Below, one piece after another: positions 5,851 through 36,628 of a DNA stretch of 64,000 nt. A model generated the notes under the pieces. The model searched no databases. It was given only the letters and a program-made list of their open reading frames with translations, and was not told the origin of the DNA. Source of the DNA: an uncultured Gemmatimonadaceae bacterium (GTDB taxonomy: Bacteria; Gemmatimonadota; Gemmatimonadetes; Gemmatimonadales; Gemmatimonadaceae); assembly GCA_963716745.1 (NCBI GenBank), contig OY970320.1, forward strand, positions 1,024,001 through 1,088,000. The letters run 5' to 3'. How positions within the stretch are numbered: position 1 is the stretch's first letter; the number at the start of each line of letters is the position of its first letter. A program made the translations under genes and the position numbers.

Positions 5851-6865
5851 CTACGGCGCGCGAGCGCACTTCGCCGATCCGGCGAGTTGGATACTGGTGC
5901 CGCTGAATCCGAGGCCCACGTGAAGCCGGACGAGAGTGACTGAAGCCGCCGGCTGCGGCTGAACGTTCGATCCCACGATCGTGCCCAGGCGTGCCTGGTC
6001 GCTATCGGACATGCCGCTCGAGCCGACGGCCACCTTGATGGGTGAACCAGTGGAATCGAAGGTCACTGTCACGTCGGCGCCGCCGCGCGCGAGCGGTGGA
6101 GAAACGCCATTGAGGAGCATGACCGTGAGCGCCGTGTCGACGTAGTCGCTCACGGCGCCGCGCGGCGCGGGCGTGGTGTCGCGGCACGGCTCCGAGACTA
6201 AAGCAGTTCCGGCGCCGCCATCCGCCCCCGCGTCGAGACCTTCGAAATGAGCGGTCCAGAAGACCTGCCGAAGCGACATGAGGTCGGACTTGTAGGTGCT
6301 ATTGATCCAGATGTATGCGCTAGGGAGATTGCCGACCGAAGCCCACCGGATCACGGCGAGATAGTGCCGGCCGACATCACTGCCGTTCGTCATCGCGGCA
6401 GCCTCCTTGTCCCATTTCCATGTGGTGATCTCCGCGGGCCGGCCCGCAATGACCGTCGTGCACGACGATTCCAACGTATGGTCGTAGGAGGCGCCGCCGG
6501 TCGACAGGCCGCGTCCCAGTGACTGCATTCCTCCGCCGTTGACCTCGTTCCCGCCGCCGGCAACGCTGTAGTAGAACGTCTGCGGCACGGATATGCCCTG
6601 GTCGCCGATCACAAGCCCGATGAAACGGTTGCCGGCACGGTATGTCGCGGCGCGGCCGCCACTCGATCCGGCGAACTTGTACGCGCTGGGGACCTTGAGA
6701 CCCAGCGCCTGTAGCGTGGCGGGCGTCCACTTCGCCGTATCGTCGTGCGGCACCGTGCACATGTTGTCACCGCTCGCCACGATCGCTACGTGGCGCTCCG
6801 CGTCTCCGGGCAGGGCGGCGGCGAACGATCAGCATCGAGACTGGAAGGACGGCGAAAAGGCGCAT
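5851..6865 (-). CDS. Secreted hypothetical protein (frameshift near N-terminus)
   Basis: Signal-like MRLFAVLPVSMLI at 6865 joins the 309-aa ORF after an indel. Confidence 0.55.
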
Positions 6866-33896: not shown

Positions 33897-34056
33897 GGAG
33901 CACCCCAGGGATGCGGATGGGTCCGGCGGGCGGTCCTCGGTTGGACACGCCGCGTGCGGAAAAGGTGTCCTCGACCTCGGCATCGGTGCAAGCGCGCGCT
34001 TGCGCGCCGGCCGGGACCGCTGAATGGTTACGGGGACGAACTCCCTACGGAGACCC

Positions 34057-34729
34057 ATGTCGAATCGTGTCAGCTTGGGAGCCATGCTTGGCGCGATGAT
34101 CTCGATCGCGCCGGCTCGCGTTCGGTCAGGCCGTGGTGCCTGCGCCGGTGCACGTGCAGCCGGCGAACAGCCAGACCCTTCAGCAGACCGTATCGACCGC
34201 GCAGGCGATGAGCGTGAAGCCGGCGCCCGCCAATGCGGCCGCAATGCATGCCCGCGTCATGCCGCACCTGAGCGCGCCGGCGCAGAGTTGGGTCCAGTCG
34301 GAGGCGAGGGTGATCGCCGGGCGGAATCTCAGTTCCTCGCAGATGATCGGGATGGCCCAGTCCGATGTGAAGAGCCGGTTCGCCGGCCAGGGGCTGTCCA
34401 ACATGGACATCGACCAGCTCGTGCAGCTGGTGATGTTCCAGACGGCACAGGACGCGCAGAACGATCTCAAGGACCAGCTCGCCGCGGTGCAGAAGAGCAA
34501 CCAGGAGAAGGCGGCCCAGCGAAACGCGGCGAACCTCCAGAAGCAGCAGGCCGCGGCCATCAAGGATTCGCTCAAGAACCATCAGGACCAAGCGGGTGAC
34601 GTCTCGCAGGAACAACAGATGAAGATGCAGACATACATGAACCGCATGAGCCAGGCGGAGAAAGCTATGAGCAACATGCTGCAGAGGATGTCGCAGACGA
34701 ACTCCGGCATCCTGTCGAACCTCAAGTAA
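34057..34729 (+). CDS. Secreted Gln-rich helical protein with T3SS filament/needle-like C-terminus (one frameshift near 34114)
   Basis: MSNRVSLGAMLGAMISIAP-LAFG|QAVV after removing one G; C-terminus QMKMQTYMNRMSQAEKAMSNMLQRMSQTNSGILSNLK. Confidence 0.65.
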
Positions 34730-34755
34730 CGTTCGTCATCCCCTCGGAGAATCCC

Positions 34756-35658
34756 ATGATCCCCTTCCGCGCGATCTTCGTCGCAGCGCTGTATCTCCTT
34801 AAGACGGGTTCGTTCCTGCAGTTGCCAGGCATTACGGGTGAGAGTACGGATATGAAGCACAAAGACTGGATCGCGCTCGAATCGGTGAGCTTCGGCGTCA
34901 CCAATGCCGCGGCGTCGGGCAGCGGGGCGAGCACGAGGTCGAGCAGTAGCAGGACGTCGTCGAGAGACATCCAGATCACCAAGCTCAACGATAGGTCATC
35001 GGCGGAGCTCATGCAGGCCGCCGCGAACGGCAAGCATTTCGCCACTGCGGAGATCGATGTTGGCACGACCCGCTATCTGCTGAAGGAGGTGATCGTCGCG
35101 TCGGTGCAGCAGACGGGGCATGGCTCGGGCGGGGGTGAGCCGACGGAGCACCTGACGCTGGTCTACGAGAGCATTCAGATCATCTATCCGCCGAAGCCAG
35201 GCACGACGGCCGCGGCCGGGGCCGCTGCCGCACCGCGCCCGACGACCATGGCGGCACCACCGATGGCCGCGCCGCCCGCTGCGCCGCCCACTGCGCCGAC
35301 CCGGGCGATGGCTGCCGCTCCGGCCACTATGTCGGCACCGGCCGCGACGAGCCCCGTCGCGCTCGAACAGCAACTCACGCAGTCACTCAGTGGAGCGGGC
35401 CGGACGTGGGTCGCGACGGAAGGCCGCGCATTGTCGCAGAATAACGGGAGCGCGGATCAACTGGTGGCCGCCGCGCGCCAGAGCGCGCAATCGCGGTTCG
35501 GCGCTCAGCCCGCCAACGTCACGAACGCGCTCGCGTTTCTCGCGCTCATGGACGCCACCAAGGCGGATCACAATCTCGCGCAATTGCAGCCCGCGATCCG
35601 CGAAGTGATGGGCGCGACGAACGCGAGCGCGGCGGGAGGGCTCGCGAACTTACACTAG
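34756..35658 (+). CDS. hcp: Hcp (T6SS tube) domain fused via a Pro/Ala linker to a helical domain shared with the upstream gene
   Basis: FLQLPGITGESTDMKHKDWIALESVSFGV...DIQITKLNDRSSAELMQAAANGKHF...LKEVIVASVQ...PTEHLTLVYESIQIIY. Confidence 0.88.
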   Translation: MIPFRAIFVAALYLLKTGSFLQLPGITGESTDMKHKDWIALESVSFGVTNAAASGSGASTRSSSSRTSSRDIQITKLNDRSSAELMQAAANGKHFATAEIDVGTTRYLLKEVIVASVQQTGHGSGGGEPTEHLTLVYESIQIIYPPKPGTTAAAGAAAAPRPTTMAAPPMAAPPAAPPTAPTRAMAAAPATMSAPAATSPVALEQQLTQSLSGAGRTWVATEGRALSQNNGSADQLVAAARQSAQSRFGAQPANVTNALAFLALMDATKADHNLAQLQPAIREVMGATNASAAGGLANLH

Positions 35659-35659
35659 C

Positions 35660-36049
35660 TCACTTCTTCTCCGTCACCGGCTCGGGGAAGACTTTAGCCC
35701 AGTCGGCCGCGCTCAGCACGTTCCGGAGATCGAAGATCCGGTCGGTGAGGTGACTCGCGTTCGCCGAATCGGCGGCGATGAACGGCTTCACGTCGGCCAC
35801 GAGCTGCCCGTCCGTCGTGGCGCGGTCGGCGAGGGCGGTCTTGAGCGACGCGATCAGCTTCGAGCGCTCCTTCTGGAACGCTTCATTCTCAACCTTCGCC
35901 GAATCCACGATGGCCAGCGCCTGTTTTTTCGTGGGCTCCGCCGTGATGCTCTTGTCGATGCCCTTGCTCGCGGCTTCGATGTGCTGCTGGATGAGCGCCG
36001 AGGCGCCACCATGCAGCAAGAAGTAGGCGATGATCAGCGAGGTCAGCAT
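35660..36049 (-). CDS. Small helical membrane-anchored hypothetical protein
   Basis: N-terminal hydrophobic helix; all-alpha; ends LRNVLSAADWAKVF. Confidence 0.7.
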   Translation of the reverse strand: MLTSLIIAYFLLHGGASALIQQHIEAASKGIDKSITAEPTKKQALAIVDSAKVENEAFQKERSKLIASLKTALADRATTDGQLVADVKPFIAADSANASHLTDRIFDLRNVLSAADWAKVFPEPVTEKK

Positions 36050-36064
36050 GGGATACGCTCCGTT

Positions 36065-36517
36065 TCAGTATTCGAGCGCCTGGACTTCGGCTTCGGAGAG
36101 CTTCAAACGCGCATTCTTGAGCTGCTGCCACTCCGCATTGGTGGCCATCGCCGCCATGCGCGATCGCAGCGCCGCGAGTTCGGGGACCACCGTTGCGCGC
36201 TCGGCAGCCGACGCGCTGAACACCGAATCGAATTGCGCGCGCGTGGAGCCGTAGTCGCGCGTCAACACGCCGATGCGCGCACTGGCCGCGGAGTCCCGCG
36301 ACGCGACGCCCGCGATGATACGCTGGAATTCGTTCGTCATCGCGACGAGTGAGTCGGCGCGAGCGGAGTCTGTCACGATCTTCCGGATCTCGCTTTGGAA
36401 CTGCGTCATATCGTGCTGCGCGGTCTGGCTCGGGCTCAGCTCCGGCTTCTTCGAGCACGCGGATAGCGAGAGCATGCAGGCGAGCGCCGCTGGAGCACAT
36501 TGGATGAGCGTTCTCAT
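36065..36517 (-). CDS. Helical lipoprotein, probable paralog of the downstream gene
   Basis: LSAC lipobox; ends LRSRMAAMATNAEWQQL. Confidence 0.72.
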   Translation of the reverse strand: MRTLIQCAPAALACMLSLSACSKKPELSPSQTAQHDMTQFQSEIRKIVTDSARADSLVAMTNEFQRIIAGVASRDSAASARIGVLTRDYGSTRAQFDSVFSASAAERATVVPELAALRSRMAAMATNAEWQQLKNARLKLSEAEVQALEY

Positions 36518-36628
36518 TGTCCCGTCCCTTGACAGGTCCCTTCCGCCGAGCACGCGAACGTGGAGAGGATCGCATCAGCAGTGTACGGCCGCAATACGAC
36601 CTTGTACGTATGGTTAGATTTCGGCTAC

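Follow-up and report, generated by a model that had tools for sequence, protein, structure and literature searches.

Hcp, a ring-forming tube fold that makes up the inner tube of the T6SS (type VI secretion system), is usually taken as a hallmark of that machine. In a 64,000-nucleotide stretch of DNA from an uncultured soil Gemmatimonadaceae bacterium (the window), a gene for an Hcp-domain protein follows closely on a gene whose product resembles Bsp22-type proteins of the T3SS (type III secretion system). Here both folds appear to lie behind Sec signals in an organism without either machine. What might such a pair be doing there?

Genomic context

The genome consists of a single 3.29-Mb contig with a marker-gene completeness of 89.8%. 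On this contig we found no matches to TssB, TssC, TssF or VgrG (PF05591, PF05943, PF05947, PF05954), to the phage sheath or to SctV/FlhA (FHIPEP), and TssC was found in none of three relatives' genomes. Because of the completeness value, the case for the absence of a T6SS core is strong and not absolute. The first-pass annotation had reported that the 64 kb hold no T6SS or T3SS genes. This holds and extends to the whole 3.29-Mb genome, where TssB, TssC, VgrG and SctV, representing the tssBC, vgrG and sct genes that it had proposed to look for, were not found. Its description of the pair as an orphan is apt in that the genome encodes no secretion machine that we could find; it does not suit gene 1, whose family has 1590 relatives.

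Layout of the locus

Gene 1 (34057-34729) is followed by gene 2 (34756-35658) in a two-gene operon, whose features are collected in Table 1. Because of the GGAG motif that precedes it, we take the ATG at 34057 as the start of gene 1. The reading frame of gene 1 shifts upstream of GTG 34133, and the extra base is best placed at T 34116 when the window is aligned to its relatives L003 and L005. Once this base is removed, the N-terminus agrees with the signal peptides of all five full-length homologues (P0007, P0008 and P0010-12). The frameshift may be either an assembly error or decay; among contigs from four public sequencing runs, none spans position 34116. A six-frame search of the genome with the gene-1-family profile matched gene 1 at E 2e-65. 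In the AF2 model of P0007, helices at residues 57-69, 72-88 and 92-106 form a three-helix domain (pLDDT >90), which is followed by a hairpin of helices 114-175 and 182-221. A promoter and terminator scan gave nothing informative and found no terminator-like site in the spacer between the genes. Next to the pair lie a permease gene and small genes unrelated to it; downstream, on the opposite strand, there are two conserved small genes that look exported.

Table 1. Features of the two-gene operon, in coordinates of the window.
Feature	Position	Strand	Basis
RBS motif GGAG	34049..34052	+	Read directly; ends 4 nt upstream of gene 1 ATG
Gene 1 part one, frame 1: n- and h-regions of Sec-type signal peptide	34057..34116	+	Read directly; 5/5 full-length homologues alike
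Single extra base (frameshift) relative to two relatives	34116..34116	+	DNA alignment to L003 and L005
Rest of gene 1 in frame 2, ending with stop TAA (34727-34729)	34117..34729	+	Homologues; family profile
Gene 1 N-terminal three-helix shared domain	34220..34390	+	AF2 model of P0007; hhalign to gene 2 C-domain
Gene 1 two-helix hairpin, Gln-rich middle, conserved tail ending NLK	34400..34726	+	AF2 model; hhalign
Intergenic spacer, 26 nt, with GGAG at 34746-34749	34730..34755	+	Read directly; promoter/terminator scan
Gene 2 putative signal peptide, residues 1-19	34756..34812	+	Kept in 4/4 close homologues and 2/2 fused relatives
Gene 2 Hcp domain, residues 20-144	34813..35187	+	PF05638 full profile
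Gene 2 Pro/Ala/Thr-rich linker	35188..35352	+	Read directly; varies among homologues
Gene 2 C-terminal domain: shared three-helix domain, shortened hairpin, tail GGLANLH, stop codon	35353..35658	+	hhalign to gene 1 family; family profile; alignment with P0037 and P0085

The sequence features described at first pass are present throughout, with three corrections. An extra base does interrupt gene 1, and it is best placed at the T given above and not at a G; the gap between the genes measures 26 nt (34730-34755) and not 27 bp; and what had been called a short hydrophobic N-extension of gene 2 is indeed present, and is in fact a conserved signal-peptide-like N-terminus found in all four close homologues and in P0037 and P0085.

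Signal peptides and putative export

Signal peptides were judged by eye and with a crude hydropathy rule. By these means both proteins look Sec-exported, and the earlier proposal that both leave the cytoplasm is supported by conserved Sec-type N-termini in relatives, namely in five of five for gene 1 and in six of six proteins of the gene 2 type. The latter comprise four close homologues together with P0037 and P0085, and in both groups every protein opens with a basic residue that leads into a hydrophobic stretch. Among the other Hcp loci, about 74 of 77 have no such signal peptide and start 3-10 residues ahead of the first strand. Most members of the gene 1 family carry signal peptides as well, and 116 of 125 short members were positive in the crude hydropathy test. 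Signal peptides are wholly absent from some members in Mycobacterium, other Actinomycetota and Chloroflexia, and the function of the family is therefore not tied to export in every lineage.

The Hcp fusion and the domain common to both genes

The complete Hcp domain noted at first pass in gene 2 was confirmed by PF05638, which matches over its whole profile (positions 1-129 of 129) at E 6.7e-27 and 94.8 bits, against a cut-off of 23.5. TIGR03344 gave E 1.5e-8 and 34.7 bits, under its cut-off of 58.9. While the match to PF05638 is shared with Hcp/TssD, gene 2 differs from these proteins in its conserved signal peptide, its C-terminal fusion and a genome without T6SS.

The first-pass annotation had also aligned part of gene 1 with the C-terminus of gene 2, and this likeness proved to be true homology. 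Comparison of the two families by hhalign gave a probability of 95.5% for the shared domain (E 1.5e-8, 59 columns), and when all six frames of the genome were searched with a profile built from 59 gene-1-family proteins, the C-terminal domain of gene 2 was recovered at E 6e-9. On these profile alignments the C-terminal domain of gene 2 is homologous to the N-terminal domain of gene 1. Aligned with P0037 and P0085, it appears as a truncated copy of the gene 1 module. P0037 (343 aa) combines a signal peptide, Hcp and the full gene 1 module in a single protein, and P0085 is intermediate in this series of Hcp fusions. The two folds are thus physically fused in some proteins, and because Hcp fusions to the full module exist, the folds of Hcp and of the gene 1 module are suggested to be used together. 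The mini-hairpin of gene 2 had no direct match to Bsp22-position or needle profiles. With the gene-2-family profile we found at least six proteins among 8000 scored candidates, and proteins of the gene 2 type are therefore likely to be rare.

Relationship of gene 1 to T3SS filament and needle proteins

The tail of gene 1 had been likened at first pass to the Bsp22/EspA/SctF class, and profile comparison bears this out, with an hhalign probability of 98% for a family of proteins encoded next to the T3SS gatekeeper; for SctF the signal is weaker, at 78%. The gene-1-family HMM scored 44 bits (E 1e-15 as a single comparison) on a 183-aa protein in a T3SS cluster of Chitinimonas lacunae. When the gene 1 hairpin was compared with 52 members of the family of this protein, hhalign gave 98.4% (E 1e-14) over 116 columns that include both helices. 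A second hhalign run on this gatekeeper-adjacent family gave 98.1%, the two runs having E values of 1e-13 to 1e-14, against 1.4% in the reversed control. In the reverse direction, an HMM of the Bsp22-position family found gene 1 only at E 0.08. A SctW/BopN-like gene lies within 3 kb at 22 of 78 loci of the gatekeeper-adjacent family, and all 22 are from beta-proteobacteria (Achromobacter, Bordetella, Acidovorax, Comamonas and others).

According to a preprint, which names WP_003820049.1 as the Bsp22 accession, Bsp22/Asp occur in the same genera and at the same gene position (bioRxiv 10.1101/2025.09.16.676505), and another report describes Bsp22 as having founded a tip-filament family that stands isolated (PMC12607632). 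The architecture described for Bsp22 and Asp (PMC12607632; bioRxiv 10.1101/2025.09.16.676505) matches that of gene 1: two conserved terminal helices with a predicted pairing enclose a variable region, and the extreme C-terminus is strongly conserved. Homology of the gene 1 hairpin to Bsp22/Asp-type helices is supported at the level of profiles, the proteins compared being gatekeeper-adjacent ones of the same genera and not Bsp22 itself. Unlike Bsp22/Asp, gene 1 has a Sec signal peptide, an extra three-helix N-terminal domain and a short loop between the helices. Bsp22/Asp sit beside the gatekeeper BopN/SctW in a T3SS (Bsc-type) cluster and leave via the T3SS without a Sec signal, whereas gene 1 is part of no T3SS locus, its genome has no SctV, and its Sec-type N-terminus is shared with all five full-length homologues.

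The weaker likeness to SctF needles is confined to the C-terminal helix, where the alignment runs from one end to the other (40 columns; hhalign 78%, E 1.8e-5, from a thin needle alignment of six sequences; reversed control 0.5%). Gene 1 is three times longer than SctF, carries a signal peptide, and its first helix is unaligned. Sub-threshold matches to PF09392 were found in 6 of 36 family members, always at the extreme C-terminus, and to TIGR02105 in three of five short members, with E values of 0.003-0.04 that all fall under the curated cut-offs; neither model matched gene 1 itself in the Pfam and NCBIfam scans. EspA/SseB (SctA class) resemble gene 1 in their helical hairpin and permissive middle. 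As weak leads, the NCBIfam SseB model aligned to the last 62 residues of gene 1 at E 0.012, and the closest named clusters in the ESM Atlas were EspA, the nearest at 0.84, and needle, all within 0.81-0.84, the shared N-terminal domain alone giving no usable named match there. Two sequence-profile searches of the PDB returned no needle or EspA chain. One of them gave nothing below E 0.07 and a weak CesA-type chain at E 0.16; in the other, matches to Fis (E 0.008-0.05) were weak and were judged to be due to chance.

A proposed role for the gene pair

Our preferred reading, put forward tentatively and short of being probable, is that the two Sec-exported proteins act in the envelope or outside the cell, independently of T6SS and T3SS, with the Hcp ring serving as a hub for oligomers or filaments of gene 1. 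Gene 1 would self-associate via its hairpin, like its T3SS relatives, and the Hcp ring of gene 2 would present, on flexible Pro/Ala/Thr linkers, six copies of the truncated gene 1 module. These might pack like-with-like onto gene 1, in which case the ring would be multivalent and act as a hub at which oligomers or filaments of gene 1 are nucleated, anchored or capped. Export, ring formation, self-assembly and contact between the two proteins are all parts that we infer, as is their co-assembly into an appendage. Complex prediction with residues 22-197 of gene 1 and the C-terminal domain of gene 2 (residues 196-300) gave a score of 0.00, which is evidence neither way.

A bolder and distinctly doubtful extension is that Sec-exported relatives of tip-filament and needle proteins are widespread self-assembling fibres of the envelope or surface that work without an injectisome, and that in this lineage an exported Hcp ring was taken over to give them a six-fold base or cap. 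Such an appendage would be of a new kind, owing its tube fold to one secretion machine and its filament fold to another, and Bsp22-type tip filaments would have been recruited from this older Sec-dependent family, or the reverse. The family link itself gives Bsp22-type proteins about 1590 relatives, which makes the origin of T3SS filament proteins testable. Should the proteins assemble, the pair would be a tractable two-protein system for the role of exported Hcp rings. A literature search at the level of listings returned no paper on Sec-exported Hcp, nor on Sec-exported homologues of needle or tip-filament proteins.

Distribution of the two genes

Co-assembly has to be weighed against the possibility, in our view somewhat unlikely, that both proteins are exported and work independently. 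In that case gene 2 would have arisen by the joining of a gene 1 paralogue to an exported Hcp; that the genes are neighbours would record only this duplication, with no co-assembly. The gene pair recurs in four of five loci (the window, L003, L005 and L174). In L004, gene 1 is deleted to a short remnant and gene 2 is intact, and gene 2 can therefore persist alone, as independent function would predict. All pair-bearing loci share one common synteny and belong to one Gemmatimonadaceae lineage; they therefore represent a single evolutionary event and are not independent support. The conserved pairing that the first pass had named as a check is accordingly there in most of the loci, and is confined to this lineage, with one locus without gene 1. 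Among 151 sampled family genomes, a tally that includes the unpublished genomes G342 and G215 with matches to the Hcp domain only, G000 and G249 were the only ones to yield a full-length gene 2. The genome of the window also contains a second exported Hcp-like gene (L002) and, elsewhere, a third and divergent gene 1 paralogue; both are unpaired, which again favours independence.

For the family of gene 1 at large we counted, at E<=1e-3 and 50% clustering, 1590 unannotated representatives from 15 or more phylum-level groups, and the C-terminus N-[LMIVFW]-K is present in 141 of the 150 best members. Long members have inserts of hundreds of residues between the two helices, a flagellin/EspA-like topology in line with the preferred reading. 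In favour of independence, an Hcp-like ORF lies within 8 kb at two of 80 loci and is missing from the other 78, so the family usually stands alone, and no conserved neighbour was found for the wider family beyond lineage synteny. At first pass the arrangement was said perhaps to be undescribed; for the module in isolation this gives way here, as gene 1 has a very large family around it whose members usually stand alone. Against independence are the tight 26-nt spacing with its RBS, a spacing that L174 and L003 keep at 24-34 nt, and the existence of Hcp fusions to the full gene 1 module. Moreover, at a divergence of 51-90% both proteins still have the same N-terminal domain, and their C-terminal tails have stayed of one kind.

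Other explanations

We rate it as unlikely that the gene 1 family comprises soluble helical proteins of the periplasm or surface, of the envelope stress or chaperone kind (Spy/CpxP- or LiaX-like), and no filament formers, with the exported Hcp ring acting like the cage of a chaperone and Bsp22 resembling gene 1 through a shared ancient hairpin only. The second helix of gene 1 contains repeated 'S-x-E-Q-Q-x-K-x-Q' motifs, which may recall LTXXQ-type motifs, and P0007 has a weak match to LiaX (E 0.0066, far under the cut-off). A family member in Lysinibacillus adjoins a HisKA_3/LuxR two-component system, and the two small exported-looking genes downstream of our pair might also fit such a function. 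However, gene 1 had no match to LTXXQ or Spy/CpxP at E<=1 in Pfam and NCBIfam, and there was none to LTXXQ, Spy/CpxP or Skp at E<=0.1 in 36 members scanned with Pfam and seven with NCBIfam, the sole exception among these chaperone families being OmpH on P0045 (E 0.083). An extreme C-terminus that does not vary, and helices that tolerate huge inserts between them, would also suit the core of a polymer better than a soluble chaperone.

A module in decay, with gene 1 as a pseudogene in this genome and no joint function left to the pair at present, appears quite improbable. A frameshift interrupts gene 1 in the window and also in L005, in addition to its deletion in L004, as might be expected of decay. 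Yet L003 and L174 have it intact, and in the window its frame is unbroken but for the single base, with 63-74% identity to intact homologues. Genes are split elsewhere in the same assemblies too, namely the Hcp-like gene in L002 and a secretin, and therefore indel errors are indicated.

Finally, gene 2 might be a regular T6SS Hcp that carries an effector extension at its C-terminus (Hcp-ET type), gene 1 an accessory or immunity protein and the T6SS encoded elsewhere in the genome, a highly improbable reading that we reject: C-terminally extended Hcp fusions are a known kind, with an Hcp domain, a linker and a C-terminal domain in the same order as in gene 2, and the Hcp domain shares 30-39% identity with canonical Hcps, but the C-terminal domain of gene 2 matched no toxin family in Pfam and NCBIfam, the single 3.29-Mb contig shows none of the T6SS and T3SS core genes listed above and TssC is missing from the three relatives, so that this is not an ordinary Hcp-effector fusion, and the putative signal peptide of gene 2 is conserved and has its counterpart on gene 1.

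Structure and conservation of the gene pair

Gene 1 (a helical protein with a signal peptide) and gene 2 (an Hcp fusion protein) are separated by 26 nt, not by the 27 bp of the first-pass annotation. This gap includes a GGAG motif, and a promoter and terminator scan found no terminator-like site in it. The pair is flanked upstream by a divergently transcribed MacB/ADOP-like permease gene and downstream by two small convergent genes. The latter had no family match, the second has a lipoprotein-type signal, and both are kept at the same position in two relatives' loci, L004 and L174.

Coordinates of the gene pair and of other loci discussed in the text
Feature	Sequence	Position	Strand	Remark
GGAG motif upstream of gene 1 start	window	34049-34052	+	sequence reading
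Gene 1	window	34057-34729	+	ATG 34057, frame 1 then frame 2, TAA 34727-34729
Gene 2	window	34756-35658	+	26 nt after gene 1
First small gene	window	35660-36049	-
Second small gene	window	36065-36553	-
Gene-1-family paralogue	own genome	C1:788321-789181	-	profile E 4e-10
Split secretin gene	own genome	C1:2334443-2334932	+	loci L164/L165
Second Hcp-like gene	own genome	C1:3276030-3276600	-	L002 1376-1954; PF05638 E 9.7e-7
Gene 1 remnant	L004	5692-5943
Convergent gene pair	L141	899-2747
Hcp gene with alternative ATG	L020	about 5900-6600

In frame 1, gene 1 encodes a basic and then hydrophobic N-terminus. Alignment of the DNA with the two closest loci supported the single surplus base proposed earlier, but its best placement is T 34116 and not a G. 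An assembly indel error is no less likely than a real mutation, because an Hcp-like gene and a secretin of the same assembly are also split, as is gene 1 of the relative's locus L005, at another place. The secretin gene is broken into two overlapping frames, and taken together with gene 1 and the Hcp-like gene of locus L002 it suggests indel errors in the assembly.

Gene 2 is immediately preceded by gene 1 in the window, in two relatives' loci (L003 and L005) and in the metagenome contig L174, while in L004 gene 1 has been deleted to a short remnant of start and tail that runs in frame into gene 2. The flanking genes are common to all five loci, which therefore represent one lineage and one event. 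Synteny of the pair is thus conserved in four loci, but within a single lineage and with gene 1 lost from L004. Among 151 sampled genomes of the family, two of them unpublished, full-length gene 2 occurred only in the window's own genome and one of the same genus; another 41 had Hcp-domain-only matches. In a Terriglobales MAG (L141), a gene-1-family gene is convergent with the gene of a 344-aa signal-peptide protein in which two Hcp-like repeats, both partial, score about E 8e-6 each; the family may have become associated with Hcp a second time here, independently, or the arrangement may be chance.

An Hcp protein with a signal-like N-terminus and a shared domain

The product of gene 2 contains a complete Hcp domain at residues 20-144 (Pfam, E 6.7e-27), from which a linker rich in Pro, Ala and Thr leads to a C-terminal ~100-residue domain. 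The short hydrophobic N-terminal extension described in the first-pass annotation turned out to be signal-peptide-like: all four close homologues (51-90% identical) open with M-x-P-x-R, a hydrophobic stretch of 10-15 residues and small residues leading up to the first Hcp strand, and the same opening was found in two more distant fused relatives, P0037 and P0085. The 19 residues ahead of the Hcp domain are thus no artefact of start-codon choice. In a set of 80 Hcp loci from 185,579 species genomes, this type of N-terminus was limited to three Gemmatimonadaceae loci; about 74 of the 77 others start 3-10 residues ahead of the first strand; of the rest, two are cut or broken and one archaeal locus is ambiguous. 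In this last locus (L020, a Nitrosopumilaceae archaeon MAG) an alternative upstream ATG would give a 29-residue hydrophobic, signal-like extension, possibly of an archaeal exported Hcp. The second Hcp-like gene in the window's genome encodes a clear signal peptide; a frameshift splits it, and no gene-1-like gene lies beside it.

The proposed match between the C-terminal domain of gene 2 and gene 1 was upheld by comparison of the two family profiles (95.5% probability, E 1.5e-8, 59 columns), and a pairwise BLASTP of two homologues gave E 2e-4. Run against the whole genome in six frames, a gene-1-family profile of 59 proteins, with no gene-2 sequence among them, found the domain at E 6e-9. The similarity thus reflects real homology. 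P0037 (343 aa) consists of signal peptide, Hcp, linker and the gene-1 module in full; P0085 has an intermediate form. Aligned with both, the C-terminal domain of gene 2 corresponds to the gene-1 module with its hairpin reduced to a stub, which retains the tail type G-G-L-x-N-L-K/H.

The gene-1 family and its relation to type III secretion proteins

The pair had been described as an orphan module, which holds for the lack of T6SS and T3SS in the genome but not for gene 1: among 1.84 billion cluster representatives, a profile search identified 1590 relatives at E<=1e-3, 495 of them at E<=1e-10. No Pfam or NCBIfam model covers this family. Within its best 150 proteins, 141 carry N-[LMIVFW]-K at the C-terminal end, and 116 of the 125 short (<=300 aa) M-starting ones have a strongly hydrophobic N-terminal stretch, as scored by a crude hydropathy rule and not by a signal-peptide predictor. 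A genome scan with a sub-alignment of the family gave 202 loci, of which 80 were kept; these belong to Gemmatimonadota, Acidobacteriota, Bacteroidota, Verrucomicrobiota, several proteobacterial classes, Myxococcota, Chloroflexia, Actinomycetota (including Mycobacterium), Eubacteriales, Patescibacteria and others. Only 2 of the 80 have an Hcp-like ORF within 8 kb, and no conserved neighbour was found among the loci compared.

The AF2 model of P0007, an intact gene-1 homologue (mean pLDDT 81.5, >90 over residues 60-170), shows a three-helix N-terminal domain, which is the shared domain, followed by long helices at 114-175 and 182-221. In long family members (700-1200 aa) very large inserts part the two helices and the hydrophobic N-terminus is mostly absent. 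Flagellin and EspA have the same topology of helices split by inserts, and in both the helix pair is the polymer core.

The likeness of the gene 1 tail to the Bsp22/EspA/SctF class, proposed in the first reading, was borne out by profile comparison. Sub-threshold matches to the PF09392 needle model occurred in 6 of 36 family members, always at the very C-terminal end and reaching the final profile positions, and to TIGR02105 in three of five short members at the same place; the SseB model matched the gene 1 tail at E 0.012. Needle genes were present in 6 of 201 genomes of one order, and near them was a weak match to a 183-aa protein resembling the gene 1 hairpin. In Chitinimonas lacunae this protein sits within a T3SS cluster (SctN, L, J, W, V, D, YscX, CesT), and the gene-1-family HMM matches it with 44 bits over both helices. 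Its family comprises 114 loci; 22 of the 78 kept have an SctW/BopN-like gene within 3 kb, and all 22 are beta-proteobacterial (Achromobacter, Bordetella, Acidovorax, Comamonas, Rhodocyclaceae, Melaminivora). Bsp22/Asp tip-filament homologues are reported from these genera, in this position and with this architecture, in a 2025 preprint (bioRxiv 10.1101/2025.09.16.676505), and a 2025 mBio paper portrays Bsp22 as two helices, one N-terminal and one C-terminal, with a mixed region between them (PMC12607632).

The comparison with Bsp22/Asp was made through this family, whose gatekeeper-adjacent members from the same genera stood in for the Bsp22 sequence itself. Aligned by hhalign with 52 of its proteins (the 78 loci minus 26 dropped for out-of-frame pieces, stops or a length above 320 aa), the gene-1 family reached 98.4% (E 1e-14, 116 columns), in a second alignment with 17 of them 98.1%, and with six SctF needle proteins 78%, where the C-terminal helix alone was aligned. 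Reversed-sequence controls gave 1.4% for the gatekeeper-adjacent family and 0.5% for the needles. The reverse HMM reached gene 1 at just E 0.08, and sequence-profile searches of the PDB returned no needle or EspA chain.

A signal peptide is absent from the gatekeeper-adjacent proteins. Close relatives of theirs from Paenibacillus, Cohnella and Lysinibacillus (L259-L331; 40-57% identical to the T3SS-cluster protein) are stand-alone genes encoding a membrane anchor or signal peptide, and gene-1-family members from Actinobacteria, Chloroflexia and some alphaproteobacteria have neither. Judged from these N-termini, the superfamily probably uses more than one export route. The placement of Bsp22-type proteins in a very large and mostly Sec-dependent family is new here. 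In Lysinibacillus locus L281 the tip-filament-like gene is transcribed divergently from the genes of a HisKA_3/LuxR two-component system.

Possible mode of action

The absence of T6SS and T3SS genes reported for the 64 kb extends to the window's genome, one 3.29 Mb contig with a marker completeness of 89.8%, in which no TssC, VgrG, TssB or TssF, no phage-type sheath and no FHIPEP (SctV/FlhA) was found; it encodes two secretins. TssC was found in none of three genomes of gene-2-bearing relatives. Both proteins of the locus carry conserved Sec-type signals and share a module; the Hcp domain is intact, the gene 1 hairpin is tip-filament-like, and the genome has neither system.

Both products might function in the cell envelope or extracellularly, where the gene 1 protein would self-associate via its hairpin, like its T3SS relatives, and the gene 2 ring would display six shortened modules packing against it, as a hub, base or cap. 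We propose this whole chain tentatively, as a possibility short of even odds. The main rival, that both proteins are exported yet independent and their adjacency is a relic of duplication and fusion, is only somewhat less probable; in its favour, L004 keeps gene 2 next to a remnant of gene 1. A chaperone or envelope-stress role is improbable. Decay, with gene 1 split in the window and in L005, appears more doubtful still. With T6SS core genes absent from the own genome and TssC from the relatives, gene 2 therefore does not encode an ordinary Hcp-effector fusion, and a classical Hcp effector retains hardly any likelihood.

The literature covered by our search included no paper on an Hcp exported by the Sec route, nor one on needle or tip-filament relatives that take this route. 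An exported Hcp fused to a tip-filament-like module, and the pairing of such a fusion with a free paralogue of its module, are new here.

Further members of the gene-1 family

The window's genome encodes a third, divergent paralogue with a signal-like N-terminus, the shared N-terminal domain and a different C-terminus; a multicopper-oxidase-like gene adjoins it. Three loci from Mycobacterium and other Actinomycetota (L118, L122, L143) encode members of ~175 aa without signal peptide, adjoined in L122 and L143 by a gene for a 700-aa Ser/Thr kinase. Because these proteins are very similar to members from Chloroflexia and Sphingomonadales, their sequences hint at horizontal spread. In P0088 (1196 aa, from the representative library) the gene-1-type module is the C-terminal part of a protein that also carries DUF5650 repeats and ABC_toxin_N/TcdB_midN-like segments; this is the slot in which the variable end of polymorphic toxins sits.
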